This document shows positions 12,923 through 62,099 of a stretch of DNA of 64,000 bases, piece after piece. Position 1 is the first letter of the stretch. Every line of letters begins with the position of its first letter. Origin of the DNA: a virus (lineage: Duplodnaviria; Caudoviricetes); IMG/VR virus record IMGVR_UViG_3300029288_000060, positions 192,001 to 256,000 of that record; one strand, given 5' to 3'. The translations under genes and the position numbers were made by a program. Under the pieces are notes generated by a model, which had not been told where the DNA came from, made no database searches, and was given only the letters and a program-made list of their open reading frames with translations.

Positions 12923-13375
12923 CTATACATTTTTTAAAAATTTATTTTTTATGTAAAGTTCTTTTGTGTAACCTATAGCATCTTTCATCCTTTTAAATTT
13001 TTTTACTGATTGTCCACCATTAGTAGATATATTACCTTTTGAATCCCAATAAAATTTATATAACTGAAGGCCAAAATATTTGCTATTTTTAAATCGATAA
13101 ACTATTCCAATTACATGATTATGTAAGTAGATCAAGTGCCTTCCATTAGGAAATAATTTAGTAGTTATATCATTATCACTTGTTGCTTCCATTAAGTTTT
13201 TATGTTTGGTATTTATAGCCTCATTCTCTGGCGGATCTTCAAGATCAGGAATACCAAATGTATGTATATTTTCATCTATAGTTAAATCAAAACTGTCTAA
13301 TGCTTCTAATAAATTAACTTTATGTGCAAATTCATTTATTCCGTCTTCTCCATGCCTTTTTACTTTATTTTTCAT
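12923..13375 (-). CDS. hypothetical protein (N-terminus paralogous to 21037-21327)
   Basis: KRHGEDGINEFAHKVNL. Confidence 0.65.
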   Translation of the reverse strand: MKNKVKRHGEDGINEFAHKVNLLEALDSFDLTIDENIHTFGIPDLEDPPENEAINTKHKNLMEATSDNDITTKLFPNGRHLIYLHNHVIGIVYRFKNSKYFGLQLYKFYWDSKGNISTNGGQSVKKFKRMKDAIGYTKELYIKNKFLKNV

Positions 13376-13559
13376 GAATTTCCAACTCCGAAATAAGTTT
13401 TGATAGAGTTAAAAATTCTTCTCCTGTAAGGAAAAAAGAATTACACCTAGTTAAAGTAGGGTGATAAGAAACTATGTATCCTCCTGTCCCAGTCTTTAGA
13501 ATAGTGAATTCTTTTAACTCATATAAAGATTCAATTGTATCATATTTATTTATACTCAT
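13365..13559 (-). CDS. hypothetical protein
   Basis: 64 aa ORF with AGGAG RBS. Confidence 0.6.
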   Translation of the reverse strand: MSINKYDTIESLYELKEFTILKTGTGGYIVSYHPTLTRCNSFFLTGEEFLTLSKLISELEIHEK

Positions 13560-13706
13560 TATTTCTCCTTTTTTACCATTTAATATTTAATAATGCTAAA
13601 AGAGACGCACAAAACCATGCAATGGCCGCGTCATAATTTTTCCTTTTGATGTATAATACAAAATTAATAAGTATCAAAAGCAATGCTATAATATCAAATG
13701 CCATCA

Positions 13707-14018
13707 TTATTCCTTAGCCCATTCAGCAGTATCCAACAAAGCATGAATAGCATCTATAACATATGCCTTATCTTGTTCTGGTGCTATAGTTGACCGAATG
13801 GCTAACACCAAGCGTTCCAACTCTGTTTTGTCATCTGATCCAATTATTTGAATAAGAGCTCTTCTGAGTTTAAGTATTGCCTCTTCAGCTTTTCGTAATG
13901 GATGTTTTTTACAAATTCTAATATGATCAGTAAGAACTTGAATATCAGCACCACTTGCTGGCGTTCCTGCTGGATATTCTTCACCACAATATACACATGT
14001 TAAAATATTATTATCCAT
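13707..14018 (-). CDS. hypothetical zinc-binding phage protein
   Basis: CVYCG...HIRIC; AGGAG RBS. Confidence 0.7.
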   Translation of the reverse strand: MDNNILTCVYCGEEYPAGTPASGADIQVLTDHIRICKKHPLRKAEEAILKLRRALIQIIGSDDKTELERLVLAIRSTIAPEQDKAYVIDAIHALLDTAEWAKE

Positions 14019-14111
14019 ATTATTACTCCTTTTTATTTCACTGCTCTAATCTATTTAAAAACTGGCTAATTAAAGCACTTAAAACTCCGAAGCAAATAGA
14101 GATTACGATAC

Positions 14112-14546
14112 CTATAATGTCTGACATTTCTTCTGTTCCTCAACTTTTAATTTCTTCAATTCATAATGTTTACATTCTCCAGGATTTGAAGGAAGTTTAA
14201 AAGTCGTATAAACTTCCCATTCTCCTTTTGCACACCAATATCGCATTCGTGTATGTAGAAAATGTTTACAAGTAGGACAATTTCTAATTGGTATTCCTTC
14301 ATTAATAACTTCAAATTTAAGTAAAAAGTTTGATGCCGCATATCTTGTCTTGAATCCCTCAACCAAACCAATTGATTGTGGGAGTCTATGTAGTGCACTC
14401 CAGCCCTTATTTTTAAAGAAAAATAATTGTCCTATATAAATATCCCCGATATAAAATAAAGTGTCAGTTTTTCTCTTCTTCCATTTCCAATCTAAAACTT
14501 TACCCTCTATTACTGACGATAACTTCAAACCATGCCTCCTTCGCAC
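14112..14546 (-). CDS. hypothetical protein
   Basis: 144 aa ORF with a Cys-rich C-terminus. Confidence 0.6.
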   Translation of the reverse strand: MRRRHGLKLSSVIEGKVLDWKWKKRKTDTLFYIGDIYIGQLFFFKNKGWSALHRLPQSIGLVEGFKTRYAASNFLLKFEVINEGIPIRNCPTCKHFLHTRMRYWCAKGEWEVYTTFKLPSNPGECKHYELKKLKVEEQKKCQTL

Positions 14547-14703
14547 ATTCAGGAAAAGGAATAAACAATTTACTTAATGTACTACCAGTAGAATAATCAA
14601 TTTTAAGTTCCGCATTGATTACTAAGTAGCATTTGTTATTGCGGGAAATTTTGATTTTATCTTCAATATTACCTATTTTTTCAACATACAAAAATTCTTT
14701 CAT
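14500..14703 (-). CDS. hypothetical protein
   Basis: 67 aa ORF tiling the operon. Confidence 0.5.
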   Translation of the reverse strand: MKEFLYVEKIGNIEDKIKISRNNKCYLVINAELKIDYSTGSTLSKLFIPFPECAKEAWFEVIVSNRG

Positions 14704-14728
14704 ATTCTCTTTTTATTCCTTCGCCCAT

Positions 14729-14971
14729 TCAACCTAAATCTACCAAAATCCTTCGAATTAACTCTGGTATACTCTTTTTCCTTATATCCACTCCACGGTC
14801 CATACTTTCGCAAGCCTCAGCATACATCCAGCCGATAGCTTTGGCTCGAACGTCCTCAACATACTTTTCAAGTTCATCATAAGCCTTGCTTGTCGGATAA
14901 ATGCCACAATCTCCTTCGTTGTCCAACATCTCACTTATAATCTTGCATATTACAGTTCTATCCTTATCCAT
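14729..14971 (-). CDS. hypothetical protein
   Basis: 80 aa ORF with GAGG RBS. Confidence 0.65.
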   Translation of the reverse strand: MDKDRTVICKIISEMLDNEGDCGIYPTSKAYDELEKYVEDVRAKAIGWMYAEACESMDRGVDIRKKSIPELIRRILVDLG

Positions 14972-15158
14972 TTGTTTCCTCTTTTTTATGTCGTTGTTAG
15001 ATTTAAGTAAATATACATCATCAGATTAAAAAACTTTATTATTAGAATAATAATACTCGTTATAGTTACTACTAACCATACAGGAGTTACCCACCAATCA
15101 TCATCATAGTTATCTTTTGAAGAGCACATTATTCCTTCTTTTTTCTCTGGTACTATCT

Positions 15159-15548
15159 TCACTTTACCTCCTTTGTCCATTCAGCTTTTACTTTACCTTC
15201 CCCATAAGGAAGTTCATACCATTGCTTTTCTAATCCTATAGATTCTAAGTCTGAAACAAGACCAACTCGAACAAGACAAAAATCTTTTACATGCTTTGTT
15301 CCACAAGTAATAAAAGGTAGAATATAAAACCCTCTTATTTTGCCATCTATTGTAATATTCTGAAAATCCTTTAACTCTTCGTTTGTAAGATTTAAAACTA
15401 CTTCGTGATAGTTCCACGATTTTTCTTTGACAGTATTATTAGGAATCAAGTTGAATATTCTACAGAACCACTTTTCAATTCTATTGCGTGGTGTTGGCAC
15501 AAATATGTCTTCATAAGTATACCAACTAAATAAATATTGGTGTTGCAT
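15159..15548 (-). CDS. hypothetical protein
   Basis: AGGAGG RBS before MQHQYLF. Confidence 0.6.
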   Translation of the reverse strand: MQHQYLFSWYTYEDIFVPTPRNRIEKWFCRIFNLIPNNTVKEKSWNYHEVVLNLTNEELKDFQNITIDGKIRGFYILPFITCGTKHVKDFCLVRVGLVSDLESIGLEKQWYELPYGEGKVKAEWTKEVK

Positions 15549-15550
15549 TT

Positions 15551-16060
15551 TTATTCCTCCTTTGCCCATTTAGCGACGATACGGCCTGTACCGTTGCAAT
15601 TTTGACAATAGAATTCATTTTTATTAACACCATAGGGCGTAACATCCCCTTTGCCTTCACATTCAGGACATTCCTCCCATCCCCATTTCTCTCTTGTTTC
15701 TGGCAGTGCCAACCATTCGGAGAGTAAGACCATGATGCGTGGTTCGCCTTCGTCGGTGAGGGAGAAGAGCCATATATAATTGCTTTGTATTGTGAAAGGT
15801 CTTTTATCGGTATCAAACCAACGTTCCCACTGCCAACCGCCGAACGCTTCCCACATCTCCCTCTTCTCCTTCCAAAACCACTGCAAGAAGGGGAGGTGGG
15901 TGTTGGGGGAGGAGTAGTCGGGATTAGGATTGAAAAAGTTTCTTAGTTCAATTTTCTCTCCACATTTAATACAGCTTGTATATCCTTTCTCTGTCAAATA
16001 TGGGAATGGTTCATGAAAGCACTTCCCTTCAAACAAGCACAACAGTTTATGGTTTATCAC
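15551..16060 (-). CDS. hypothetical protein with DnaJ-type zinc finger
   Basis: GTG start (INHKLL) after AGGAG; C-terminal CPECEGKG and CQNCNGTG. Confidence 0.65.
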   Translation of the reverse strand: MINHKLLCLFEGKCFHEPFPYLTEKGYTSCIKCGEKIELRNFFNPNPDYSSPNTHLPFLQWFWKEKREMWEAFGGWQWERWFDTDKRPFTIQSNYIWLFSLTDEGEPRIMVLLSEWLALPETREKWGWEECPECEGKGDVTPYGVNKNEFYCQNCNGTGRIVAKWAKEE

Positions 16061-16272
16061 TTTTTTATCTCCTTTGTAGGAAACTTGCAGTCTGTCATCC
16101 AATTTCCCCATGAAGAAATGATAGGAACACCACCTTGTGCAATACAAGCGTTTATAGACTTCCTTCTTGCATCGGCATATTCCTGATCTGAAATTGTGTC
16201 GGTAGGACTACAACCCACTAAAAGAATTGCAACCAAAACAAGTATTGAAAATAAGAGTTTATGATTTATCAT
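16057..16272 (-). CDS. small lipoprotein
   Basis: MINHKLL... LLVGC lipobox; AAGGAGG RBS. Confidence 0.7.
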   Translation of the reverse strand: MINHKLLFSILVLVAILLVGCSPTDTISDQEYADARRKSINACIAQGGVPIISSWGNWMTDCKFPTKEIKK

Positions 16273-16327
16273 CTTGACCTCCTTCGAGAGCATACAGAAA
16301 TATTATAAGTCTATACAATCTCCAATT

Positions 16328-16759
16328 TTATAGTAGTTTTTGAGTTACTTCCTCATGCTCACAGTTTTCACACTCATAAACATACCACCATTCTGTAACC
16401 GCTCCAGTTCTTGAATCGTAATCACCTTCTCTTTTAAATTCCAATTTTTTCTTATATTTATGTTTACATTTTTTGTGAACATTGAGCGACTTAATCACAC
16501 GGCTAAGACACTCACATAACTCTGTACATTGTTCTATTTTTTGCATTGGGCAATCTGAACAGTCCATTTTATATCGGTATCTTGCAATATCTTTTAGTTT
16601 ATCCCACTTCTCGGCCTTCTCGATGGTGGGGGCAAGGAGGGAGAGGATAGAATCAGCAACTTTATCTGCATCATAGTCACATTCACAAGAGGACATATAA
16701 TCTTTCTGAAAGCCACTATGGGCTATGGTACATATCTCTCTTTTCAGTTCATCCTTCAT
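16328..16759 (-). CDS. mosaic Cys-rich hypothetical protein
   Basis: KDEL, ADSILS and EKAEKWDKLK modules plus CxxCP. Confidence 0.7.
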   Translation of the reverse strand: MKDELKREICTIAHSGFQKDYMSSCECDYDADKVADSILSLLAPTIEKAEKWDKLKDIARYRYKMDCSDCPMQKIEQCTELCECLSRVIKSLNVHKKCKHKYKKKLEFKREGDYDSRTGAVTEWWYVYECENCEHEEVTQKLL

Positions 16760-16770
16760 CTCTCATCTCC

Positions 16771-17034
16771 TTAACATAGTGGGCATTCATCTATCCCGCC
16801 AAGTTTGCCGTGAATGGGACAGTCGTATTCCTCGATAATCTTAAAGCCTTCCACCTCATTGTAAACCACATATCTTGCCTTCTCATCCTCAAGGGGACAC
16901 CAAGCGGGGATACCTTCTTTTTCAACTATCTGGTCAGTACCCATGCACCTGTCGATAGTGGTAGTTCCGTCCCCCGCCAATTCTTCATACGACCACGGAC
17001 ATTCCCCGCAGTTCTCAACCTTGATTATTTTCAT
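16771..17034 (-). CDS. mosaic Cys-rich hypothetical protein
   Basis: MKIIKV and CPLEDEK modules; AAGGAGG RBS. Confidence 0.7.
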   Translation of the reverse strand: MKIIKVENCGECPWSYEELAGDGTTTIDRCMGTDQIVEKEGIPAWCPLEDEKARYVVYNEVEGFKIIEEYDCPIHGKLGGIDECPLC

Positions 17035-17035
17035 C

Positions 17036-17323
17036 TTAACCTCCTTCGAGAGCTTCGACGATACTCTTTGCATATACACAAAGTACCTCTTCGCATGTTA
17101 TCAGGGGGCAGGTATCGCACGTTCGAGTATTTCTCAACGCCGCTATCTCCTTCACCTTATCCCACTTCTCGGCCTCCTTCTCATCCTCAAGGGGACACTC
17201 TTTAGGAATGACATTACTATCAATAACTCTGCCTGTTACTCCGCATCGTTTTATCCCAAACACTATCAGACCGTTGTTAATTTTAGGACAATCGAAACAG
17301 CTTCTAACCTTGATTATTTTCAT
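17036..17323 (-). CDS. mosaic Cys-rich hypothetical protein
   Basis: MKIIKV, CPLEDEK, AEKWDKVKE and IVEALEGG modules. Confidence 0.7.
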   Translation of the reverse strand: MKIIKVRSCFDCPKINNGLIVFGIKRCGVTGRVIDSNVIPKECPLEDEKEAEKWDKVKEIAALRNTRTCDTCPLITCEEVLCVYAKSIVEALEGG

Positions 17324-17693
17324 CTTGACCTCCTTCGAGAGCTTCGACGACATCCCTGAATATACAACCACCGTACTCCAAGGTACAGGCATCTTCTTTC
17401 CATAAAGGGCATTTGCACGGTGGTCTTGAATCTGCACACTCCTTCACCTTATCCCATAGGCGAGCCTTCTCGATGGCAGGATCAGGGTGTTGAATATCAG
17501 AAAGTATAGCTTTTGTCAACATTTCTTTTAGTTCTGGTTTAACATCGTCCATAAAGAAATGTAACCAGCGTTTTACTGTTTTTAATTCTTGTTGTGTCTT
17601 CTCAGCTTTCTTTAACTCAATCCTTATTTCATCAAGGATAGCACCGTTTTGAAAGTCTTCTATTTTAAGTTTATCAAACTCTTTAACTGTCAT
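17304..17693 (-). CDS. mosaic hypothetical protein
   Basis: EKARLWDKVKE and VVEALEGG modules. Confidence 0.7.
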   Translation of the reverse strand: MTVKEFDKLKIEDFQNGAILDEIRIELKKAEKTQQELKTVKRWLHFFMDDVKPELKEMLTKAILSDIQHPDPAIEKARLWDKVKECADSRPPCKCPLWKEDACTLEYGGCIFRDVVEALEGGQDENNQG

Positions 17694-17874
17694 TCTTGTA
17701 CCCCTCTTCGTGGTCTTCTGTTGACAATGAAAACCATCTAACTTGACTCAAAGGAATATGTCTATTTGTCCCGTTCGACAATCGCATCCATAAAAGATAA
17801 GCTCCAAACCGCACTTCGGAGCATTCAAATACTTCTCTGTAACCGTCCCACCACCTTACATTAACTGTTTTCAT
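17683..17874 (-). CDS. hypothetical protein
   Basis: 63 aa ORF with AAGGAGG RBS. Confidence 0.65.
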   Translation of the reverse strand: MKTVNVRWWDGYREVFECSEVRFGAYLLWMRLSNGTNRHIPLSQVRWFSLSTEDHEEGYKNDS

Positions 17875-18194
17875 CCCTTACCTCCTTCGAGAGCATCGTT
17901 AATATCTTTGCAGACGGCACCAGGGTACAAATGGGAACCGCAGATATAATTCAGGAAGCACTTGTCACATGAGGTTTCGAAGAGGGATTTTAGTTTATCC
18001 CACTTCTGAGCCTTCTCCCGCGTCTCGTTATCCTCTGCACCCGCCAGTTTTATAATCCTGTCAGTATGGGCTTCGGATAGTTTTTTCTCAAGTTCTATAC
18101 ACTCAGGGCACTCAATCCATGCCCTAACTATAAGTCTTTCGGGTACTTCGTTTGATACTTGTTTGCCACATTTCGAGCATTTAACGTGACTCAT
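17871..18194 (-). CDS. mosaic Cys-rich hypothetical protein
   Basis: Zinc ribbon plus EKAQKWDKLK and ALEGG modules. Confidence 0.7.
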   Translation of the reverse strand: MSHVKCSKCGKQVSNEVPERLIVRAWIECPECIELEKKLSEAHTDRIIKLAGAEDNETREKAQKWDKLKSLFETSCDKCFLNYICGSHLYPGAVCKDINDALEGGKG

Positions 18195-18489
18195 CTTTCA
18201 CCTCTATAAGAGCTTCTTCAAGTATCTGAATAACAGGAGTAGCCGATTTTACCATTGCTTCTTCTCTATCTGTTCCAACATCTCTTGCAAAGAAATGGAA
18301 CCATACTTTCACGGATTTCAATGTCTCTTTCATCTTCTCAGCCTTCTCAAGTTCGGGGGCAAGGATTGAGACGATTGAATCTGCAAACTTCCTTCCTTCG
18401 GATAGACAAAGAAGAAAGTCCCAATATTTTCCGTAACGATATTTTGCATAGAGTTCGGCTATCTTCTCTTTCAGTTCATCTGTGTTCAT
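18181..18489 (-). CDS. mosaic hypothetical protein
   Basis: DELKEKI, ADSIVSILAPELEKAEK and EEALIEVKD modules. Confidence 0.7.
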   Translation of the reverse strand: MNTDELKEKIAELYAKYRYGKYWDFLLCLSEGRKFADSIVSILAPELEKAEKMKETLKSVKVWFHFFARDVGTDREEAMVKSATPVIQILEEALIEVKDESR

Positions 18490-18574
18490 CTTTATATTCC
18501 TCTAATTTAAAATTTTAAAAAGTATCGTGTAAATTATAGCGAATATTGTAATCCATATGATTAAGACTCTTATG

Positions 18575-18796
18575 TCAAGCATTTTTTATACCTTGCCAAA
18601 ATTTTTCATATTTTTCTTGTACAGTACCGTTTCTTACGTCCTCTGGAAGATTCATATAATTAGGATAATCCTTAAATAAAATTATCTCCGGCCAAGAGGA
18701 CAGGTCTGTAACCTTCCAAACTATTATCCCGATTCCATTCTTAACTATTTTGACGGCTTTCTTTCTATTCTTATAGGTCAATATTTCATTAAACAT
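18575..18796 (-). CDS. hypothetical protein
   Basis: 73 aa ORF coupled to the upstream gene. Confidence 0.6.
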   Translation of the reverse strand: MFNEILTYKNRKKAVKIVKNGIGIIVWKVTDLSSWPEIILFKDYPNYMNLPEDVRNGTVQEKYEKFWQGIKNA

Positions 18797-19046
18797 CTTT
18801 CACTTCGAGAGCTTCGACAAGTATATCCATCATGCAACGCCTACGTCGATCACAATAACGTTCAATAGGACACTTCACATTCTCCAACCCTACAATACAT
18901 GCGTTTTCCTCTATCTCCTTCACCTTATCCCATAGGCGAGCTTTCTCTTGGAGTCCTTTCAATTCCCTATCATCAATCATGGTCATATTCATGCTAGTCA
19001 TCTTTCTTGCCCCCTTCAAGGTTTTGTACAACCATATAACAAGCAT
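18789..19046 (-). CDS. mosaic Cys-rich hypothetical protein
   Basis: EKARLWDKVKE and LVEALEVKD modules; start probably internal (MTSMN). Confidence 0.65.
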   Translation of the reverse strand: MLVIWLYKTLKGARKMTSMNMTMIDDRELKGLQEKARLWDKVKEIEENACIVGLENVKCPIERYCDRRRRCMMDILVEALEVKDV

Positions 19047-19362
19047 CTATCAAATCATAATTGTTGTATGTTTTTCTCGCGTTATCATCTACGGGAATGT
19101 TTGCTATTCGCTTTACACTATTCCATTTTTCAGCCTTCTTAAGTTCAGGGGTAATGATGGAGAATGTTTTATCGACAATAAGATTTGTCAGTTTTTTTAC
19201 TCTGGCGCGGAAGAGGGGGTCGGTATTAAATCTGCCAATAGCATATTTTTCTTTGTTGTTTATTACATTTGCGGTAGTTGTACTTAAGTATACCGGGTAG
19301 AAAAACTGGTCGAGCAAAATGGTCGTAATGTACTGTATTTCATGAAATAGTTCATCCTTCAT
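18994..19362 (-). CDS. mosaic hypothetical protein
   Basis: MKDEL, PELKKAEKW and NLEGG modules. Confidence 0.7.
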   Translation of the reverse strand: MKDELFHEIQYITTILLDQFFYPVYLSTTTANVINNKEKYAIGRFNTDPLFRARVKKLTNLIVDKTFSIITPELKKAEKWNSVKRIANIPVDDNARKTYNNYDLIDACYMVVQNLEGGKKDD

Positions 19363-19714
19363 CCTTCACCTCTATTCGTTTACCACACTTATGACAGAAA
19401 GTATAACCTTCATAAAATTCAAACATACCACATGAAGTTATATATACGTCTTGACCATGTATTTGCCAATCATCCTTTGTCCACACGCATCTCTCAGCGT
19501 TGACAAGGGAGAGAATGCGGTCAGCAACTTCGTATTTATCCCAATATGGTGGGTCGTAACATCCTGCTTCGCTTGCTATTTCCTCTCTCAGTTCATCCTT
19601 TACTTGGTTTTCTTGTATCTTTTCCAAGAAGGTCTTACCATGCTTGAGGTAATATTCTTCATCCTCTTCCCTAATCTTTTTTACTTCTTCAATAGCTTTG
19701 TTAATGTTGTTCAT
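19352..19714 (-). CDS. mosaic hypothetical protein with zinc ribbon
   Basis: KDELREEI and VADRILS modules plus CVW..TSCG..CHKCG. Confidence 0.7.
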   Translation of the reverse strand: MNNINKAIEEVKKIREEDEEYYLKHGKTFLEKIQENQVKDELREEIASEAGCYDPPYWDKYEVADRILSLVNAERCVWTKDDWQIHGQDVYITSCGMFEFYEGYTFCHKCGKRIEVKDEG

Positions 19715-20243
19715 CTTCCTCCTCCAAATACACTAATGCTGGATGCTTTCTTGTGCCGGAGCCGTGACAGGTTGAACATTTTTTACCATTAATCTGTAAA
19801 CTATTGATTGTACCATCATCCATTATCACACCACACTTAGGACATTTCTTTATTCCCCACTCCCGATACTTTGAAAGATAGTTAATGAGATTATCCATAT
19901 TAAGTTGAGCGTTGAGTTGACCAATAAATGAATTTGTATCATCGTTTGCATGACAAGTCATATGAGCCATTTCCTCAAGATAAGATTCCCACACCTCCGG
20001 TAATTCCCGTTCCATATATTTCTTAACATAACCGAATTTATCAAGAGAAGAATCAGAATAAATTTGACTATAGTTCATGTTGACAAGCTTGGCTAAAAAC
20101 ATATCCTTATCCATATTTGCCTCTTTTCTCCTTTGTTTTTTCCTCTTATCTCTTTTAAGTTGACACATGATACACGTCGCTCCATCATAAAAATACTTTT
20201 TACAAGTATTATCTGGGCAACAGATAACAATATCATTTTTCAT
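19701..20243 (-). CDS. hypothetical zinc-finger protein
   Basis: CPKC...CSTCHGSG; may start internally at MDKDMF. Confidence 0.6.
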   Translation of the reverse strand: MKNDIVICCPDNTCKKYFYDGATCIMCQLKRDKRKKQRRKEANMDKDMFLAKLVNMNYSQIYSDSSLDKFGYVKKYMERELPEVWESYLEEMAHMTCHANDDTNSFIGQLNAQLNMDNLINYLSKYREWGIKKCPKCGVIMDDGTINSLQINGKKCSTCHGSGTRKHPALVYLEEEDEQH

Positions 20244-20485
20244 GGATTATCCTCATAAACATGCTTCCAATAACCCCCGCACCACGTAGATGGTTTATAC
20301 CATACGATTTTAGTGAATATCCAGTATTTTCTGTAAATCAATTCTCCGATTGTTTCATCATAAAATGTCCCGCCACATTTGGGACAACACGTTCCTTCTA
20401 TTGGGACAGCGATTTTGCATTTCAGACACCCTCTTATACTAACATAATGTTCATACATGATTATCTCCAAGACCGCAGAAACCAT
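20240..20485 (-). CDS. hypothetical zinc-ribbon protein
   Basis: CLKC...CPKCG. Confidence 0.55.
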   Translation of the reverse strand: MVSAVLEIIMYEHYVSIRGCLKCKIAVPIEGTCCPKCGGTFYDETIGELIYRKYWIFTKIVWYKPSTWCGGYWKHVYEDNP

Positions 20486-20750
20486 GTCTGTCGGGTTTTA
20501 TTCTTGAGTACTCTATAGTGGCCGGGCTTATATTGTTTTTTGACCATCCATCTTCTTCACAACATGGAGTAGGTCTATCATACGTAATTTCTATTTCAGG
20601 TTCAGACCATTTCCACAACTGACAATCAGAAGCATCACATTTGATTTCATCCATTTTGTTAATTTCAGATGGAAGATAAAAGTTTGGAATTGTTAACACT
20701 GCCGCTTTGTACTTTGGACATATTGTCTTTCTTGCCTCTTCTTCAGTCAT
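20451..20750 (-). CDS. hypothetical protein
   Basis: MTEEEARKTICP...CDASDCQLWKW...GFCGL. Confidence 0.65.
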   Translation of the reverse strand: MTEEEARKTICPKYKAAVLTIPNFYLPSEINKMDEIKCDASDCQLWKWSEPEIEITYDRPTPCCEEDGWSKNNISPATIEYSRIKPDRHGFCGLGDNHV

Positions 20751-20954
20751 TTATTCCTCGCTTGGTAAATGAATCATACCAACCTGATATCTTTTTTGGC
20801 ATCTCCTACAAACTGTATATAATTTAGCATGTCTTCTTCCAATACCATCCGTAATATATTCTTCAACTTCAAAATATCTATTACAATCTCCATCTATACC
20901 ATCACCATAATAACCAGGTTCAGGCCTATGACCAAATAATTTACAAAGAATCAT
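20751..20954 (-). CDS. hypothetical protein (LCKLFGH...CRRC type)
   Basis: 67 aa ORF with AGGAG RBS. Confidence 0.65.
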   Translation of the reverse strand: MILCKLFGHRPEPGYYGDGIDGDCNRYFEVEEYITDGIGRRHAKLYTVCRRCQKRYQVGMIHLPSEE

Positions 20955-21036
20955 TTTTTCACTCCTTTTTTATCTTCATATAACTTATTAATTTCTATTT
21001 CTCCTAAGATTTATATATCCCCCAAAAAATATCAGT

Positions 21037-21327
21037 TTATTCACTTATAAAAGATCCTTTCTTACGATATTTACTGTTATTTGTAAAAAAATCCCCTGGA
21101 TAGCTAGTCCCGTCGTCATAAGGAATACCGATTGCATTACGAGTTTCAATCGCATTTAATTCGAGAGTTGTTTCATTCAGCGCTTCTCTTATCTCTGATT
21201 CAGGATCTTCAATCAAAATAGACCATTTACCCCCTTCGTCTGCTACCTGATCTAGATTGACATTATGAGCAAATTGATTAATATCTTCTTCTCCATGTCT
21301 TTTTAGTCCTTTCTTTTTATTTTTCAT
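21037..21327 (-). CDS. hypothetical protein (paralogue of the 12923-13375 N-terminus)
   Basis: KRHGEEDINQFAHNVNL. Confidence 0.65.
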   Translation of the reverse strand: MKNKKKGLKRHGEEDINQFAHNVNLDQVADEGGKWSILIEDPESEIREALNETTLELNAIETRNAIGIPYDDGTSYPGDFFTNNSKYRKKGSFISE

Positions 21328-21341
21328 ATTTCTCCCACCTT

Positions 21342-21755
21342 TTAATTTCTAGAATCAATTAAAATAAAATTTTCTATACTATTTTTTGGTATATGAAAAC
21401 TTAAAATAACTCCTGAATTTTTATGTATTTTAAACACTCTTTCAACAGAAGAAAATGGTGCACTACTGGTAAGAGTCATAGTTACATATGATTCAGTTAT
21501 AGAATTTACATCCTCATAAATCTGACAATATTTTGAGTTTACAATTCCGAAATTAGCTGCTCCATTTTTAATATAAATAAATTTTATTAAAATTTCAAGA
21601 GTTGAAGATGAACTTCCAAGAAATTGACCGTGACTTAAAACTTTTGATGTATTATTTATTTGTTTTAATGGGTATGTCTCCGTAGCAGTTTCTTGACACC
21701 CAACTAAAAAAATACCACACAATACAAAAATAATCATGATTGTTTTAATTTTCAT
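21342..21755 (-). CDS. putative lipoprotein
   Basis: Signal peptide with FLVGC lipobox. Confidence 0.7.
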   Translation of the reverse strand: MKIKTIMIIFVLCGIFLVGCQETATETYPLKQINNTSKVLSHGQFLGSSSSTLEILIKFIYIKNGAANFGIVNSKYCQIYEDVNSITESYVTMTLTSSAPFSSVERVFKIHKNSGVILSFHIPKNSIENFILIDSRN

Positions 21756-21805
21756 CTTTCACCTCAAATTTCATAATTACTCCTTTAGCCTTACTTAGGT
21801 ACTCC

Positions 21806-22024
21806 TTATGCTGTAGTAAATGGTAGATTATTTTCCACTATTAAGACTAAACTATCATCATCTTTTATAATACAACCAAGAACAACCTCTCCATCCCAAC
21901 TTAAATAGGGAAAACATTTATGGGAATATACGGATACTCCATCTATATCAGATGGAGAGTAACCATTCATCTTGGATAATTTTTTAAATTTATCTATAAG
22001 ACCATCTCTAGTGTATAATTTCAA
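21806..22024 (-). CDS. hypothetical protein
   Basis: 72 aa ORF with GGAGG RBS. Confidence 0.6.
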   Translation of the reverse strand: MKLYTRDGLIDKFKKLSKMNGYSPSDIDGVSVYSHKCFPYLSWDGEVVLGCIIKDDDSLVLIVENNLPFTTA

Positions 22025-22056
22025 TTTTCCTCCATTAAAGTTTTGAACTATCTTTT

Positions 22057-22386
22057 TTATTCTTCTAAGTTTTCTCCTAATTGGATTAATAATTTTTTTG
22101 CTTCCTCATATGCAGTTCTTGTTTCCTCACTATTAGCATTAATCGAAATACTCAACACTAAGTTTTTTAATGACATCTTCATTTTTTTATTTTTTTCTAC
22201 CTCTCTATATAACTTAGCCGTTGGTGAACTATGTATTTTTTCTAAATCTCTTTCTGCTTTCTTTTTTTCTCGTTCTGCTACGGTCTCTGGATGATGTTGT
22301 TTACAAAATCCGTCTTTCCATTCTTTTCGAGAACATCTAGAACTACGCCATGATCCTGAAAGCCAAACTCTTGCTGTACATTGCAT
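22057..22386 (-). CDS. hypothetical protein with N-terminal Cys/His cluster
   Basis: QC...RC...FCKQHHP. Confidence 0.65.
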   Translation of the reverse strand: MQCTARVWLSGSWRSSRCSRKEWKDGFCKQHHPETVAEREKKKAERDLEKIHSSPTAKLYREVEKNKKMKMSLKNLVLSISINANSEETRTAYEEAKKLLIQLGENLEE

Positions 22387-22407
22387 TTTATTCTCCTATT
22401 TCCTTTA

Positions 22408-22638
22408 TTAACCATATTGACCATCTTCGCCCAAATATCCTTGTTCACCATGGTCCCATTCTGTAGGAGCCATGTACTCTATTTCTTCTTTGGACTCTTT
22501 CTCTAAAGGAACATTTAGGTGCTCGTAATAACCTCTGGGGTTATGGGTATTGTGCCATCTATCCTTATGCTTATTACAACAAAATTTAGGTCTTTTAGTT
22601 TCTTTCCCGCACCATAGACATCTATTCATTTTCATCAA
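22408..22638 (-). CDS. hypothetical zinc-finger protein
   Basis: CLWCG...KFCCNKH. Confidence 0.6.
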   Translation of the reverse strand: MMKMNRCLWCGKETKRPKFCCNKHKDRWHNTHNPRGYYEHLNVPLEKESKEEIEYMAPTEWDHGEQGYLGEDGQYG

Positions 22639-22647
22639 AAGTCTTAC

Positions 22648-22875
22648 CTACCTCTTATAAATTTGTTTTTTATGACATTTACATTTTTCATTATATATTT
22701 TACCCATATCCTCCCACCATCCCCGTCCAGTAAAATCTTTAAAATTATAACAAAATTGTTCTTGCATTTGACCACATTTTTTACAATATCTTCTATATGG
22801 ATTATATTTATCATAACGAAATAAAAATAAATTTCTTAAAAAATCAAAAACCATTTTATTTATCCTCTTTATCAA
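22648..22875 (-). CDS. hypothetical protein
   Basis: 75 aa ORF with CKKCG. Confidence 0.55.
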   Translation of the reverse strand: MIKRINKMVFDFLRNLFLFRYDKYNPYRRYCKKCGQMQEQFCYNFKDFTGRGWWEDMGKIYNEKCKCHKKQIYKR

Positions 22876-23284
22876 CTAGCTTCCAAAATTCTTTATTAAT
22901 AAGTTTTGCATATTCAGGAGGTAAATCTTGGCTATTAATTTTTTCTATTATTTTAATTGATTCCACAAGTTCATCATAACTACGAGATTTCTCTAGTTGG
23001 TTGGCAGCGAAGAGAGCCAGAATTTCATTCATTATTATTACAACTTTGGTATCATTTAAGAAACCAATTCTAATTATATCTGTTACCTTTTGTCGTAGTT
23101 CAAGTTCATTCATGTTTTCATTTTTTACTAAATAATTTTCTTCATGCAGTACTTCAAGAAATGCTTGAATTAAATCAACAATTTTAGATCTTTCCCATCC
23201 TTTAAATTGGAAATTCGAATTAATTACAAGTTTATCATGTCTATCTAAAACTTTTTTTGCAACCAATAAAAAATCAATCTCCAT
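22856..23284 (-). CDS. hypothetical protein
   Basis: 142 aa ORF with GAGG RBS. Confidence 0.65.
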   Translation of the reverse strand: MEIDFLLVAKKVLDRHDKLVINSNFQFKGWERSKIVDLIQAFLEVLHEENYLVKNENMNELELRQKVTDIIRIGFLNDTKVVIIMNEILALFAANQLEKSRSYDELVESIKIIEKINSQDLPPEYAKLINKEFWKLVDKEDK

Positions 23285-23314
23285 AATAACCTCTATTTTC
23301 TCTCTTATTGATAC

Positions 23315-23713
23315 TTATTTCCCAGTTGCAAGGTCTACGTCTGGAACTATTATCTGTGGACGGAAAATAACCTTGTAGTGATAAACATTCACTGGAGCTT
23401 CTTTTAATTGTTCAGCAAAATAGGTCACATTATCCGAAAGACCAAGATAATGTTTCTTATACTCTGTATTTGATGTTTTACACGTTACGGTAACAACCCT
23501 TTCACTAGCTCTTATATCAATTGAACATCTTCCTTCTATTGAAAGCATATATTCTTTTTGTATAGAGTTATAAAAAACAATACGTCGTTCTATTTGAAAT
23601 TGGTCTGCTGCAACAGAAATATTATGTGAAGCCACGTCTGCTTCTTTTGAACATCCTACAAGCAGAATAATACAACTTATTAATAATAACATCAACTTTG
23701 CTAAAATTTTCAT
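23315..23713 (-). CDS. phage lipoprotein
   Basis: LLVGC lipobox; EADVASHNIS...RRIVFYN...YKKHYLGLSDNVTY. Confidence 0.75.
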   Translation of the reverse strand: MKILAKLMLLLISCIILLVGCSKEADVASHNISVAADQFQIERRIVFYNSIQKEYMLSIEGRCSIDIRASERVVTVTCKTSNTEYKKHYLGLSDNVTYFAEQLKEAPVNVYHYKVIFRPQIIVPDVDLATGK

Positions 23714-24045
23714 TTTTTCTCCTTTATCTCTTTTGAGAATTTTATTAATTCAGTTCTTGCCTTCTTATTTTTTGTTTTTTTAGTCTATTATATATATTCC
23801 ACTTATAATAATATTTATAATTGAATAAGTATAGAAAAAACTTTTGAACTTTATTAAGATTTATTTTTGTATAAATATCCCATTCTTCTTTATTTGGTAT
23901 ATAATTACCATAAATTATCATTTTGACAAGCCTCACTTGTTTTCTTCAAGATCAACCACCTTTCTTACCTCCTTCAGGAACTTTGACAACATTCCGATAT
24001 TACTACGTTTAACAAAACATGAAAATGATTTTAATTTATTAAAAA

Positions 24046-54348: not shown

Positions 54349-55503
54349 ATGGAAAAAAGAAATGTGCCTTTATCAAGATTATGGATTGATAAAAATGAAT
54401 TAATCGAAGTCAAAAAAGTTTTAGAAACTGGATGGTTGACAAAAGGTCCTAAAAATTTAGAATTAGAAAAAATGGTATCTGAATATTTGGGTGTAAAACA
54501 TGTTGTATGTACTTCCTCTTGTACTACAGCTTTACATTTAGCAATTGCGTCATTAGGTATTATTACTAAACAAGGTGAAGAAGATGAAATATTGGTAGCA
54601 GATTATACATATCCAGCAACTGGTCACGCTGTTAAATATTGCGGTTTAAAACCAGTTTTTGTTGATATTGATAAGAAGACTTATAATATGGATTACAAAG
54701 ATTTAAAGAAAAAAATAAATAAAAAAAGAACCAGAGCAATAATTGTTGTACATACCTTTGGTCAGTCTGCAGACATGGAAAAGATTATGAAAATTGCTAA
54801 CAAGAAAAATATTCCAGTAATTGAAGATGCAGCGTGCGCTTTAGGATCTAAATTTAAAGGACAATATTGTGGAACAATAGGAAAGATTGGATGTTTTTCA
54901 ATGCATGCTACAAAAGGTGTAGCGACTGGAGAAGGCGGACTTTTAGTAACCAATGATGATGATATTGCTATAAGAGCAAGGAGTCTTGGTTCATTTGGTT
55001 TAAATACTTGGAATAGAGAAATAAGTAAAGAGTTTAATATTCCAGTATTTGAAAATATAGGTTTTAACTATAAAATGAGTGATTTATCTGCTGCAGTTGG
55101 TATAGCTCAATTTAAAAAATTAGGTAAAATTATTAAAAAGAAAAATGCTCTTGCTAGATATTGGAATAAAAGATTAAAAGAAATTGATTATATAGAAGCT
55201 CCATATATCAGAAAAGGAAAAGGAAACATACATAATTATCAAGGTTATAGTTGTTTGGTATCTCCAGTTGTTAATAGAAATAAATTAATCCAAGTATTAA
55301 AAGATTATGGTATTCAATGTCAGATTGGTACTTATTGTTCTTATATTCAACCTTGTTATAATAATGAAGAAGACGAATGTTTTAATTCATTAGATGTATA
55401 TAATAGATCTATTAGGTTACCTATGTTTTATAAGCTAAAAAGATCTGATATTGATTATGTAATTGATATATTAAAAGAGATTAGAAGTCAGGTATTTATT
55501 TAA
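54349..55503 (+). CDS. DegT/DnrJ/EryC1/StrS sugar aminotransferase
   Basis: SSCTTALH, IEDAACALG, FSMHATK, GEGG, GFNYKMSD. Confidence 0.95.
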   Translation: MEKRNVPLSRLWIDKNELIEVKKVLETGWLTKGPKNLELEKMVSEYLGVKHVVCTSSCTTALHLAIASLGIITKQGEEDEILVADYTYPATGHAVKYCGLKPVFVDIDKKTYNMDYKDLKKKINKKRTRAIIVVHTFGQSADMEKIMKIANKKNIPVIEDAACALGSKFKGQYCGTIGKIGCFSMHATKGVATGEGGLLVTNDDDIAIRARSLGSFGLNTWNREISKEFNIPVFENIGFNYKMSDLSAAVGIAQFKKLGKIIKKKNALARYWNKRLKEIDYIEAPYIRKGKGNIHNYQGYSCLVSPVVNRNKLIQVLKDYGIQCQIGTYCSYIQPCYNNEEDECFNSLDVYNRSIRLPMFYKLKRSDIDYVIDILKEIRSQVFI

Positions 55504-55676
55504 ACAAAAAAATATAAGGAGGCGGGCAGGGCTCTTTATATGAGCCCATCCCGCCTGATGGTTTGAGAGGCGGGAGACATCCTAGTCATCCCATTCTCTG
55601 GTGCGAACAGAGCAGTCGTTTATTCCATTGGACTTTTCGCACTCCTCAAGATTATCGACTCTTTTTAATTCCTCTC
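55503..55676 (-). ncRNA. candidate structured ncRNA A (rod-like hairpin plus terminator)
   Basis: GC-rich, no ORF; 5' GAGAGG pairs with CCUCUC, GUGCGAA with UUCGCAC, AGUC with GACU; hairpin 55520-55556 followed by a U-tract. Confidence 0.65.
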
Positions 55677-55693
55677 AAAAATTAATATATGTA
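55676..55693 (-). promoter_or_regulatory. phage promoter-like motif
   Basis: TACATATATTAAT-TTTT-GA. Confidence 0.7.
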
Positions 55694-55730: not shown

Positions 55731-56663
55731 ATGAAAATTTTAGTTAGTGGGTCATGTGGATTTATCGGATTCCATCTTTGTAAAAAATTATTAGAATTAG
55801 GGCATGAAGTTATTGGTATTGATAATTTTAATGATTATTATGATCCGCAAATAAAAAGTGATCGATATTTAAAATTAAATAATTGTGTTATACTTGGAAA
55901 TATTGAGGATCCTAATACATATAGAGATATACCTAAAGTAGATTTAGTTATTCACTTAGCAGCTCAAGCTGGAGTAAGATATAGTCTAATTAATCCAGAA
56001 TCATATATCCAAACTAATATTTTAGGATCATTTAGATTAATAGATTTCGCTAAAAAATGTGAATGTGAAAGATTTATTTATGCATCATCTGCATCAGTAT
56101 ATGGAAAAAATCAAATTCCGTGGCATGAGGAAATGAATTTATTAGAACCAATTAGTTTATATGGAGCAACTAAAATATCCTTAGAATCTATAGCAGATTC
56201 ATATTATGAAATGTTTGGTTTAAAATCTGTTGGTTTAAGATTCTTTTCTGTTTATGGACCTTGGGGAAGACCAGATTTATCTTTATGGAAATGGACAGAA
56301 GGTATACTAAAAAATGAACCAATTAAGATTTTTAACTATGGAAAAAATAAAAGATCATGGACTTATATAGATGATTTAATTCCAGGTATAATTAAAACAT
56401 TAACTTCTGAAGGAAATATCGAAAAATTTAATCTTGGTTCTGATAGATTGGTTGATATAGATTATTCAGTTACTTGCATAGAAAATTATTTAGGAATTAA
56501 AGCAAAAAAAGAATACGAACCAATGCAGGATGGGGATATAGTTGAAGCAAATCCTGATTTAAATAAATCTAAAAAAATATTAGATTTTAATCCAGAAATA
56601 GAATTTGAAGAAGGTATTAAAAAATTCATAGATTGGTTTAAGGAGTATAAAAATTATGAATAA
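55731..56663 (+). CDS. UDP-glucuronate 4-epimerase-like SDR
   Basis: GSCGFIG, HLAAQAGVRYS, YGATK, VYGPWGRPD. Confidence 0.9.
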   Translation: MKILVSGSCGFIGFHLCKKLLELGHEVIGIDNFNDYYDPQIKSDRYLKLNNCVILGNIEDPNTYRDIPKVDLVIHLAAQAGVRYSLINPESYIQTNILGSFRLIDFAKKCECERFIYASSASVYGKNQIPWHEEMNLLEPISLYGATKISLESIADSYYEMFGLKSVGLRFFSVYGPWGRPDLSLWKWTEGILKNEPIKIFNYGKNKRSWTYIDDLIPGIIKTLTSEGNIEKFNLGSDRLVDIDYSVTCIENYLGIKAKKEYEPMQDGDIVEANPDLNKSKKILDFNPEIEFEEGIKKFIDWFKEYKNYE

Positions 56664-57120
56664 CTTTATAAAAGATTGCGATTCATTAAATGCTCCAGAA
56701 TTAGCCTATTTTGTTTTACATAATAAAATTAAAAGAATTGGTGGCAGAGAAGCTAATCATATCGCTCGTTTAATAAATGGAATTGAAATTGACTTAAGGA
56801 TACCTGAAAAAGAGATGAAAATATTAATGGCTTTGAAAAAAGTTGAAATGCGTTCATCTTGTGAAGGCAGTGAAAATTATGGACCATTTTTTATTTTTAG
56901 ATTTGTTGATAATAAAGATAAAAAATTTATAAATTCATTTTGTGATTATATGATGTATAAAGATTCATCAACTCTTTCTAAATTTGGAATGGGAAGAATG
57001 AATGAATATAGAATAATTGTTACTGGTAATTTTTTAAAAGATTCAGTTACTAAAACTGAATATAATAATTGGTGGAAAAATGTAACAAAAAAAATGGAGC
57101 ATTTTTGTAAGAATAATTAA
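56656..57120 (+). CDS. hypothetical protein
   Basis: 154 aa ORF with SSCEG motif. Confidence 0.7.
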   Translation: MNNFIKDCDSLNAPELAYFVLHNKIKRIGGREANHIARLINGIEIDLRIPEKEMKILMALKKVEMRSSCEGSENYGPFFIFRFVDNKDKKFINSFCDYMMYKDSSTLSKFGMGRMNEYRIIVTGNFLKDSVTKTEYNNWWKNVTKKMEHFCKNN

Positions 57121-57126
57121 TTGTAT

Positions 57127-57455
57127 AAACAAAAAAAAAGTGGGGGACGATATTCGATCATCCCCCTTATCGCAACCCGACCCGAACCATATTTAATGGA
57201 TTATCTCCATGGAATTTTGGGGGGTTGCAATTTTTTAATAATCTCCCAGCGCAAGTTTTTCTTTTTGAGTAAAAGAGATCGGACTGACGTCGCTGGGAGT
57301 GCGCACCTTTTCACATTGTCTGCTGGTTAGTACCTTAGCGAAGAAGAGGCCTTACTTTTGCCAGCATTCAAAAGTACTTCTTTCGTTTCTGGTTTTCAGA
57401 GTTTCTCAAGCTCCTAGAACAGAAATTCAGTACCGACCTTACCTTCTTTCTATTC
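57127..57455 (-). ncRNA. candidate structured ncRNA B (multi-hairpin, pseudoknot)
   Basis: Several strong stems, loop UGCUGG complementary to downstream CCAGCA, terminator 57142-57166 plus U-tract, promoter motif at 57455-57472. Confidence 0.7.
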
Positions 57456-57487
57456 ATAAATAAATATATATAAAGGATCATTTAATA

Positions 57488-58564
57488 ATGAAAAAAATTG
57501 TTACTATTATTGGAGCAAGGCCGCAGTTTATAAAAGCCTCTGTAATATCGAATTTAATAAAATATAGAGATGATATAGAAGAAGTAATAATTCATACTGG
57601 TCAACATTTTAATGAACTAATGTCTGATATTTTCTTTAAAGATTTAAATATACCTGAACCGAAATATAATCTCAACATTTCTAGTTTGTCGCATGGTGCT
57701 ATGACTGGGAGAATGATATCTGACATTGAGGTGGTATTAAATATTGAAAAACCAGATTTAGTTCTAGTATATGGAGATACTAATTCAACTTTAGCAGGAG
57801 CATTAGCTTCTAGTAAACTTGGTATTCCAATTGCGCATGTTGAAGCTGGGCTTAGATCATTTAATAAAAAAATGCCAGAAGAGATAAATAGAAAACTAAC
57901 TGATCATGTTTCTGATTATTTATTTTGTCCCACTATAAAATCCTTAGAAAATTTAAAAAATGAAGGAATAATCAGTAACGTAGAATTAGTTGGTGATATT
58001 ATGTATGATTCCTTTCTTAATAACCAAAAACGAGACAAAAATTGTTTAGAAAGTATAAATTTAAAATCAAAAGAATTTTGTTTATTAACTTTGCATAGGC
58101 AAGAAAACACAGAAAATTATAATAAAATTTGTGAGTTATTAAATGCAATTAATATTATTTCTAATGAAAATAATTATAAAACTATATTTCCTATGCATCC
58201 AAGGATTGTTAAATTTCTAGAAAAAAATAATTATGACTTTTCTAAAAATAAAGATATTTACTTTATTGCTCCATTATCTTATTTAGATATGATTTGCTTA
58301 GAAATAAATTCAAAACTTATTTTTACAGATTCTGGCGGAATTCAAAAAGAAGCATATTGGGCAAAAACTCCTTGTATAACTTTACGAGAAGAAACAGAAT
58401 GGGTTGAATTATTAGATACAGAAATGAATGTATTAACGGGATTAAATAATGAAAAAATAAAATCAGAATTTCTTAATTTTGAAACTAAATATTTGAATTT
58501 TAGTAATCCTTTATATGGTGATGGGAAAACTGGACAAAAAATTTTAGAAACCATAACTAAATAA
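57488..58564 (+). CDS. wecB: UDP-N-acetylglucosamine 2-epimerase (non-hydrolysing, WecB/WbpI-like)
   Basis: GARPQFIK, HTGQH, VYGDTNS, HVEAGLRS, PEEINR, TDSGGIQKEA. Confidence 0.93.
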   Translation: MKKIVTIIGARPQFIKASVISNLIKYRDDIEEVIIHTGQHFNELMSDIFFKDLNIPEPKYNLNISSLSHGAMTGRMISDIEVVLNIEKPDLVLVYGDTNSTLAGALASSKLGIPIAHVEAGLRSFNKKMPEEINRKLTDHVSDYLFCPTIKSLENLKNEGIISNVELVGDIMYDSFLNNQKRDKNCLESINLKSKEFCLLTLHRQENTENYNKICELLNAINIISNENNYKTIFPMHPRIVKFLEKNNYDFSKNKDIYFIAPLSYLDMICLEINSKLIFTDSGGIQKEAYWAKTPCITLREETEWVELLDTEMNVLTGLNNEKIKSEFLNFETKYLNFSNPLYGDGKTGQKILETITK

Positions 58565-58771: not shown

Positions 58772-58847
58772 GTTAGGAAATGGGGTAGGATTCGAACCTA
58801 TAGCCTCCGGAGCTTTCTCAAGACACCTATTGTCTCCCATTCCTAAC
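58772..58847 (-). ncRNA. tRNA-like element without an anticodon arm
   Basis: Acceptor-like stem, GACA-AUAGG-UGUC D-like arm, UAGG-UUCGAAU-CCUA T arm. Confidence 0.6.
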
Positions 58848-61141: not shown

Positions 61142-61423
61142 TTAAATAAACCCATCATGAGTATAATAACAAATCATGACGTTATCAAGGTTTCCATGTG
61201 GACAATTTCCTTGAATAGTAATAAGGTCAGTTATTTGGTTTTTTGCAATTCCGGTAAGTTTTGTATCACTTGGGTATTGTTGAAGGATTGTAATTAATTC
61301 TCCAACAGTTCTTTGTTTGGGAACCATCTGATCCATTTTTTCGATTTCTTTGATATTACATACTTCACATTTTTCATCCCTAAAACAAAAGAATCTATCT
61401 GATTTTTTACATATTATTGACAT
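61142..61423 (-). CDS. hypothetical protein
   Basis: 93 aa ORF with TVGELITILQQYP motif. Confidence 0.7.
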   Translation of the reverse strand: MSIICKKSDRFFCFRDEKCEVCNIKEIEKMDQMVPKQRTVGELITILQQYPSDTKLTGIAKNQITDLITIQGNCPHGNLDNVMICYYTHDGFI

Positions 61424-61817: not shown

Positions 61818-62099
61818 TTAGCCGTGAGCAGCGATTAAGAATTTACCGTTGCGTCCATCGTCATAATAAACTTGTCGAGTTTTGTGGACGATCGAATGGA
61901 AGACAACAAGATAGGCCCAAACTGCCATAGGGCCAGTAAGAATTACCTCTTGTTTATCAATTTCCAATTTTGCTATGTTACGACCTACAATATTAATCGC
62001 TTTATCTACAGGCGTTATCAGGTTTAATCTTCCAGCAACTTCTATAATAACACATCCCGCATATAATTCTGTATTTTCTAAACCAAGATTGATAAACAT
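61818..62099 (-). CDS. Csx3/Crn3-like protein, candidate cyclic oligoadenylate ring nuclease
   Basis: VILTGPMAVWAYLVVFHSIVHKTRQVYYDDGRNGKFLIAAH resembles the recalled Csx3 core VVISGRGPIW..H...H...YDPR..VVxSH. Confidence 0.55.
   Translation of the reverse strand: MFINLGLENTELYAGCVIIEVAGRLNLITPVDKAINIVGRNIAKLEIDKQEVILTGPMAVWAYLVVFHSIVHKTRQVYYDDGRNGKFLIAAHG

Follow-up and report, generated by a model that had tools for sequence, protein, structure and literature searches.

A 367-nucleotide (nt) gap between two plus-strand genes, within a long sugar-biosynthesis operon of the IMG/VR virus record IMGVR_UViG_3300029288_000060, holds a predicted transcription unit on the opposite strand whose product would be a pseudoknotted RNA, the subject of this report. 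The record comprises 268,812 bp at 27.8% G+C and is estimated to be 74% complete. The stretch analyzed here, called the window, is its positions 192001-256000 (64,000 nt); coordinates given without a contig name are those of the window, and position n of the RNA lies at window coordinate 57456-n. The size of the record, its matches to virion and tail proteins, and two large proteins that match RNA polymerase beta and beta' subunit families identify the source, by sequence, as an uncultured jumbo phage encoding its own multisubunit RNA polymerase. There is no close phage in GenBank, where the top tblastn identity is about 30%. The RNA unit is flanked on the left by the gene for a 154-amino-acid (aa) ORFan (56656-57120, plus strand) and on the right by a UDP-GlcNAc 2-epimerase-family gene (57488-58564, plus strand).

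The whole predicted transcript occupies 57131..57455 on the minus strand (about 320-325 nt) and is bounded by a promoter-like motif and a terminator. The motif, TATATATATTTAT (57460..57472, minus strand), is followed by a 4-nt spacer and a G (+1) at 57455. Relative to this G, where the first helix of the RNA begins, it spans -17 to -5 and is centered near -11. At the other end, a 10-bp G+C-rich stem (57142-57166) and a U run form an intrinsic terminator (57131..57166, minus strand), the sole terminator-like site in 56600-58000. A preliminary description of this DNA, made from the letters and a list of translations, had noted the terminator and had reported no downstream open reading frame (ORF) within the unit. 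Indeed, we found no usable ORF in any of the three minus-strand frames of the unit and no conserved ORF among the members described below. A coding reading was dropped because the only conserved AUG meets a stop in the window copy, and stop-codon recoding because, genome-wide, ORFs gain little length when TAG or TGA is taken as a sense codon. The G+C content of the RNA body is 43%, 15 points over that of the genome.

Direct DNA searches for homologues failed, and these were obtained via contigs encoding the closest epimerases. Three distinct homologues were found in the same place and orientation (L027:48-378, L028:1058-1313, and L033:276-540); a copy in L037 is identical to that of L033. All three lie upstream of epimerase genes, in divergent orientation, and have the same promoter motif upstream at the same spacing. 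The corresponding epimerases are 75-78% identical to that of the window and belong to the nearest clade. Judged by comparison of these sequences, the RNA fold is conserved beyond chance: the pseudoknot, the stems of the arm that carries it, and the hairpin at 57243-57299 have all been kept through two-sided changes.

We designate the helices P1 to P5 and the long-range pairings PK1 to PK3. P1 (57417..57455, minus strand), drawn from RNAalifold and pair counts, pairs GAAUAGAAA (RNA 1-9) with UUUCUGUUC (RNA 31-39) around a 21-nt loop, L1. Across members 97% of its cells are paired by the same two measures, and the helix begins exactly at the predicted +1. Its pairs covary, G-C being replaced by A-U and A-U by U-A in L028, and U.G by U-A in L033. 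The P2 hairpin (57398..57414, minus strand) has a GGAG/CUCU stem, one pair of which appears as A-U, U-A, or U.G, and the loop CUUGAGAAA, in which UGAGA is invariant. For P1 and P2 together, 93% of cells are paired, compared with 33-52% when the partners are slid by one to three columns, and four pairs have changed on both sides. P3 (57339..57385, minus strand), the second arm of the preliminary description, is made of a lower stem, CGAAaGAAG/CUUCUUCG, and an upper stem, UACUUUUG/CAAAAGUA, with the internal loop AGGCCU on its 3' side (57347-57352, minus strand) and the terminal loop AAUGCUGG (57361-57368, minus strand). Both stems occur in four of four members despite unrelated sequences. P4 (57243..57299, minus strand) comprises an outer stem, CUCCCAGCG/CGCUGGGAG, an inner stem, UCUUUU/AAAAGA, and the apical loop ACUCA (57266-57270). 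Outer and inner stems covary, with 6 of 12 predicted pairs altered on both sides, and the three homologues thus retain this hairpin, which had been proposed from the window alone. In L028 and L033, P4 is directly followed by a U run and doubles as the terminator. These two members are without P5 (57170..57230, minus strand), an accessory hairpin that the window copy has in common with L027 only; both of the latter carry a separate terminator as well. In the window, P5 consists of UUGCAACCC/GGGUUGCGA, also noted in the preliminary description and present in the sequence, with an inner GGA-GAUAA-UCC hairpin; in L027 the outer pairing is GCUCC/GGAGC, the middle one CCGG/CCGG, and the inner hairpin the same.

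A single-sequence model (R1) failed to align P4 across a variable linker, and the long-range pairs were therefore tabulated by script. PK1 joins the P3 loop sequence UGCUGG (57361-57366) to CCAGCA (57321..57326, minus strand). This pseudoknot, along with the 8-bp upper stem of P3 (57353-57376), had been put forward in the preliminary description, with compensatory change in homologues as the check on it; both sides do covary in the three homologues. PK1 reads GCUGG:CCAGC in the window, GCCCG:CGGGC in L027, GCCAG:CUGGC in L028, and GCUCAG:CUGAGU in L033, with three different Watson-Crick pairs at one position. PK2 links GGUCGGUACUGA, inside L1 (57427..57438, minus strand), to UCAGUCCGAUC in the P4 5' internal loop (57277-57287, minus strand). 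In all four RNAs this internal loop is the best partner of the conserved L1 block. The block is GGUCGG in the window and GGUUGGA or GAUUGGA in the others, and the partner is CCGAUC in the window and UCCAACU or UCCAAUU in the others; the compensatory changes are U-A to C-G and G-C to A-U. When partners were swapped among the four RNAs, the cognate set had the best summed duplex energy of the 24 permutations, for PK1 and for PK2 each.

Every element listed in the preliminary description is present in the sequence where it was placed. However, its closing helix GGUAC/GUACU, and with it the "5' junction domain," is confined to the window copy, overlaps a PK2 strand, and has no counterpart in the homologues. 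A P1 drawn between GGUAC and GUACU was rejected for the same reasons: it is not conserved and competes with PK2, and the homologues pair that loop with the P4 internal loop. Thus P3 with PK1 and the hairpins survive from the earlier secondary structure, whereas its closing helix was wrong and two further long-range pairings had been missed.

The second of these, PK3, is the complementarity of the P2 loop (UGAG or GAGAA) to the P4 apical loop (CUCA or UUCUC), seen in all four RNAs and extending to 7 of 7 nt in L028. A kissing contact is consistent with this but unproven, as its sequences barely vary. The P2 loop had earlier been described as T-loop-like (UUGAGAAA). It is conserved as UGAGA, but its complementarity to the P4 apical loop favors a kissing contact over a free T-loop. 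We also rejected an interdigitated double T-loop, in which a UUCUA "bulge" and the UGAGA loop would dock a tRNA elbow, because the "bulge" is the 3' strand of P1. The P3 3' internal loop is a G+C-rich 6-nt palindrome in every member, AGGCCU in the window and CCUAGG in the other three. Palindromy that is kept while the sequence differs is the pattern expected of a self-kissing dimerization site, and we regard it as a lead; the observation was made post hoc on two independent cases, and AGG-containing segments of L1 or J1/2 could be alternative partners of the loop. Finally, G.U pairs in P1, P2, and PK2 and the orientation of the predicted promoter and terminator fix the minus strand as the RNA strand.

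The preliminary description had recognized no family for this RNA, and none emerged from our searches. Nothing in the entire 64-kb window reached the gathering score in a search with Rfam 15 (4227 models, which include tmRNA, RNase P, 6S, SRP, ROOL, GOLLD, OLE, raiA, pRNA, T-box, riboswitches, self-cleaving ribozymes, and introns). When the threshold was relaxed to E≤10 for 56900-57700, matches were at chance level (E≥0.11), none of them covering the RNA core, and the RNA cores of L027, L028, and L033 gave nothing at E≤1. Features diagnostic of particular classes were also sought. ARAGORN calls no tmRNA or tRNA in the window or the homologous loci. As regards riboswitches and T-boxes, no minus-strand ORF lies downstream in the window, L027, or L033, and P4 has no conserved alternative pairing. 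The 268.8-kb record has no Cas12f1-like_TNB domain, such as would accompany an omega RNA (IS200/IS605, IscB/TnpB), and the flanks of the RNA are sugar genes. Nor does the record contain an RVT_1 match, as for a retron msr-msd, or a TROVE domain, as for YrlA (Y-RNA-like), and the RNA has no internal tRNA-like module. The literature searched contained no earlier account of an RNA like this from jumbo phages, though a paper outside that library is possible. From these comparisons we regard the element as a stand-alone non-coding RNA of an uncatalogued family, new at the level of RNA family and fold.

A tRNA-like gene does lie next to one member. At L028:945-1045 (minus strand), about 13 nt after the U run of the RNA, a sequence matches the Rfam tRNA model at 36.5 bits, above the cut-off of 29. 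Its D loop carries an insertion of 20 nt and its anticodon loop one of 23 nt, and ARAGORN does not recognize it as a tRNA. In the window, the tRNA-like signal of the next cassette, at 58777-58843 (minus strand), is only weak (19.3 bits and E of 0.56 on the tRNA-Sec model, well below threshold). The record has four tRNA genes; a tRNA with a CUA anticodon, of the TAG-reading suppressor type, lies at G000:C1:263759-263829, outside the window.

The family appears to be rare in the data searched and to belong to a small clade of uncultured jumbo phages. A blastn search of GenBank phages with the RNA gave no match. Scans with exact patterns drawn from motifs that the members share, run over IMG/VR, JGI metagenomes, and GTDB (a single genome for each species), returned chance matches in coding sequences only, in addition to L037. 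Six related IMG/VR records (G001-G006), found via their epimerase or RNA polymerase genes, had no copy by blastn or by the covariance models R1 and R2; matches to these models at E of 0.18-0.42 in related records were inspected and are noise. Within the genome itself there is no second copy or paralogue, and a weak nhmmer match 31.3 kb into the genome was set aside because it is a different cassette.

The promoter motif of the RNA is not peculiar to it. TAYATATATTWAT, then a 4-nt spacer and G-A, lies upstream of all five aligned minus-strand units between 55.5 and 62.5 kb. Genome-wide, about 48 sites match this 13-mer with at most one mismatch, and GAAAU follows most of the good copies. Almost all of these are minus-strand sites, often marking antisense islets within plus-strand operons; copies in the window lie at 55693, 57472, 59446, 62359, and 62479. 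In jumbo phages, early genes have an AT-rich, highly conserved motif of about 10 nt near -10, attributed to the virion polymerase (PMC7598289). The present unit has the sequence features of such an early transcription unit, namely a recurrent AT-rich motif near -10 in a genome with its own multisubunit polymerase genes. Because the promoter motif of the RNA is the recurrent AT-rich motif of this genome, centered near -11, transcription by the virion RNA polymerase early in infection is probable.

Relatives without the RNA delimit an inserted cassette of about 370 bp (57117..57487). In the Logan contig L025, the 154-aa ORF and the epimerase start overlap, leaving no cassette between them, and in L002, L005, and L029 a dehydratase-like gene abuts or overlaps the epimerase start, again with nothing between. 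In L032 and L034, a small minus-strand protein gene occupies the same site, and these two protein-coding cassettes are preceded by the same promoter motif. Since relatives hold either nothing or small protein genes behind this promoter, the insertion site shows, on comparative grounds, the pattern of a slot for variable early accessory cargo.

The surroundings offer several further observations. The flanking ORFan and the nearby cassette proteins have no Pfam family: ORFs of 124, 226, 108, and 46 aa are unmatched at E≤0.05, as is a 93-aa ORF at 61818-62099 (minus strand), and another 93-aa ORF, at 61142-61423, has a sub-threshold ATG8 match only (E of 0.03; 15 bits against a cut-off of 27). 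The 154-aa ORF was considered as a partner of the RNA and dropped, as it occurs without the RNA in L025. The same contig has a TnpB (OrfB_IS605/Cas12f-like) gene at L025:160-1404, adjoining the same sugar genes, and is without the RNA cassette. A 743-bp ENA contig, L026, agrees with the window at 90% identity over the 3' two-thirds of the 154-aa ORF and the start of a related terminator stem, which is visible at the contig's end; its upstream part is unrelated to the window, which points to a recombination joint inside the 154-aa ORF, near window position 56794. An adjacent promoter-RNA-terminator cassette at 55503-55693 (minus strand) begins GAGAGG and resembles a sequence in the corresponding intergenic position of the related IMG/VR contig L002 (4860-5065), which begins GAGAGAGGAGG; the two may represent a second conserved non-coding cassette. 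Farther away, at 13000-24000, many small minus-strand ORFs coincide with a G+C content raised to 0.30-0.42, compared with about 0.26 elsewhere.

Several known RNAs bear comparison with this one. ROOL and GOLLD RNAs reportedly go back to Weinberg et al. (2009/2017), and cryo-EM work on them is given in 10.1101/2024.12.08.627333. The present RNA resembles them in being phage encoded and non-coding, with pseudoknots, kissing loops, an obscure function, and a tRNA neighborhood (in L028; weak in the window). It differs in size, with a core of 210-260 nt against about 580 to more than 800 nt, and in helix plan, and it has no sequence or structure match to either; multimerization, a property of those RNAs, is for this one only a lead, through the palindromic loop. 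Like the pRNA of the phi29 family, it is a small, structured, probably early phage RNA that would act through shape and loop-loop pairing. In contrast, pRNA is confined to small phi29-like podophages and lies at the genome end, whereas our RNA has no Rfam match and is dispensable cargo. As most relatives are without the RNA cassette, a core packaging role is unlikely. In pseudoknotted riboswitch aptamers such as SAM-IV, a hairpin loop pairs with the 3' tail. PK1 likewise pairs a hairpin loop with a strand 3' of the stem, and here too tertiary contacts enclose a compact core; however, the present RNA is much larger, has its own promoter and terminator and two more long-range contacts, lacks a regulated downstream gene, and matches no riboswitch model. 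With 6S RNA and protein decoys it shares the form of a stand-alone, ORF-free transcript unit of an abundant type that would act by being bound. Yet 6S forms a pseudoknot-free rod with a central bubble, while the architecture here is globular and without a Rfam 6S match.

What such an RNA does can be approached by exclusion. We lean, if only slightly, toward a trans-acting early accessory RNA that works through its folded shape. The cassette is an insertion with its own phage-type promoter motif and terminator, and the transcript would be made early, probably by the virion RNA polymerase, and would fold compactly, with P4 clamped to P1 and P2. The RNA would then bind some factor of host or phage origin, be it protein, RNA, or small molecule, in host take-over or counter-defense, rather than act through base-pairing to a message. 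The grounds for this are that there is no downstream gene, that the fold is over-elaborate for antisense, that the unit has its own promoter and terminator, and that it is interchangeable with small early proteins. The preliminary description had also proposed a trans-acting structured RNA, such as a ribozyme, ligand sponge, or protein decoy. What holds of that proposal is a non-coding, pseudoknotted unit of conserved structure with its own promoter-like motif and terminator and no Rfam family, for which a cis role is unlikely because no gene follows on the RNA's strand and the fold exceeds the needs of an antisense RNA or a terminator.

A number of points weigh against the trans-acting reading or temper the evidence for it. 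No partner gene travels with the RNA and its neighbors are all ORFans, so that the binding role is argued by exclusion, and the "early" class of the promoter comes solely from the shape of its motif. There are four distinct sequences only; covariation was counted as pair changes, which is not a statistical test, and where the sequence is variable, helices were positioned by hand before being checked. Moreover, the nested minimum free energy (MFE) of the conserved core is unremarkable, with a z-score of -0.96 for the window copy and of -0.96 to -3.4 across members. A 351-nt stretch spanning the unit does reach a minus-strand z of -5.2 (-4.0 for the plus strand), a value owed largely to the terminator, P5, and artefactual pairing of the A/U-rich ends. 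With a core z of only -0.96, the case for a conserved fold rests on comparison and not on energy.

That the RNA is without a function of its own, a decaying cassette remnant or a chance fold, would agree with its rarity (four members), its modest core MFE z-scores, and its absence from most relatives. We nonetheless find this scarcely credible, given that paired positions change together, that long-range loops stay complementary, that the G+C content lies 15 points above the genome, and that promoter and terminator are intact in all members. Action in cis on the plus-strand sugar operon, with convergent or antisense transcription or a duplex with read-through operon mRNA insulating or timing epimerase expression, draws on the location of the unit. 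The epimerase start codon lies 33-58 nt from the RNA +1, with position and divergent orientation kept in four of four members; five minus-strand cassettes interrupt the plus-strand operon in the window; and the plus strand is without a good terminator here, making a fully complementary operon transcript likely. However, antisense or interference needs no three conserved long-range pairings with compensatory change, and relatives run the same operon with the site empty or occupied by a small protein gene, so we judge a cis role improbable. A leader of the riboswitch or T-box type that senses a ligand or tRNA and governs read-through of its own terminator would account for the terminator stem of L028 and L033 being P4, which joins the tertiary pairings, and for the tRNA-like gene about 13 nt after the U run in L028. 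Yet only the antisense of the neighboring gene follows in the window, L027, and L033; the window copy and L027 have a separate terminator after P5; and there is neither a conserved antiterminator nor a T-box or riboswitch match, all of which makes such a leader highly improbable.

The elaborate fold itself is compatible with two further readings. A ribozyme, self-processing or acting on another RNA, could be built on a compact multi-pseudoknot fold with invariant unpaired nucleotides (the UA of J1/2, the GAA that follows P2, and an A-rich strand ahead of PK1). We think this very doubtful, as Rfam models of self-cleaving ribozymes, RNase P, and introns do not match, no repeat, intron, or replication context calls for cleavage or ligation, and no candidate active site was identified. 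A self-assembling, RNA-only multimer of the ROOL/GOLLD/OLE kind, in which PK2, the P2-P4 loop contact, and the palindrome would be contacts between copies in a dimer or ring, is possible but unlikely. In its favor are the G+C-rich palindrome of P3, whose palindromy is kept where its sequence is not (AGGCCU compared with CCUAGG), and the fact that covariation does not separate intra- from intermolecular pairs. There is also precedent in ROOL, where a kissing loop first predicted to be tertiary proved to be quaternary, and ROOL and GOLLD often lie near tRNA genes (10.1101/2024.12.08.627333), as the tRNA-like gene of L028 directly follows the RNA. On the other side, the core of about 210-260 nt is far smaller than ROOL or GOLLD and has no Rfam similarity to them; any 325-nt sequence would be expected to hold about five 6-nt palindromes, against which stand only two independent ones picked out post hoc; and the P3 internal loop has the alternative AGG-containing partners in L1 or J1/2.

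Returning to a trans-acting accessory RNA, a bolder version, which we hold to be speculative and on present grounds unlikely, is an early phage RNA that acts without any dedicated protein, either as a dimer or ring self-assembled via its palindromic and kissing loops or as a sponge for a host factor, for instance an immune signaling nucleotide or a tRNA-directed defense enzyme. If true, the RNA would be a small and tractable counterpart, in spirit, to the nanocage RNAs ROOL and GOLLD, or else a naturally occurring RNA "sponge" for counter-defense. To our knowledge, few RNAs longer than 200 nt combine a complex fold with several long-range contacts. Those known have historically proved to be ribozymes, riboswitch-like sensors, scaffolds of ribonucleoproteins, and, lately, RNA-only cages. 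With a clean unit, a compact core, and natural variants that map three tertiary contacts, the present RNA is directly testable in vitro. Its position also suggests that the "early cargo" slots of jumbo phages, usually ascribed to small anti-host proteins, can hold structured RNAs. Cargo slots of this sort would widen the search space for phage counter-defense and host take-over factors.
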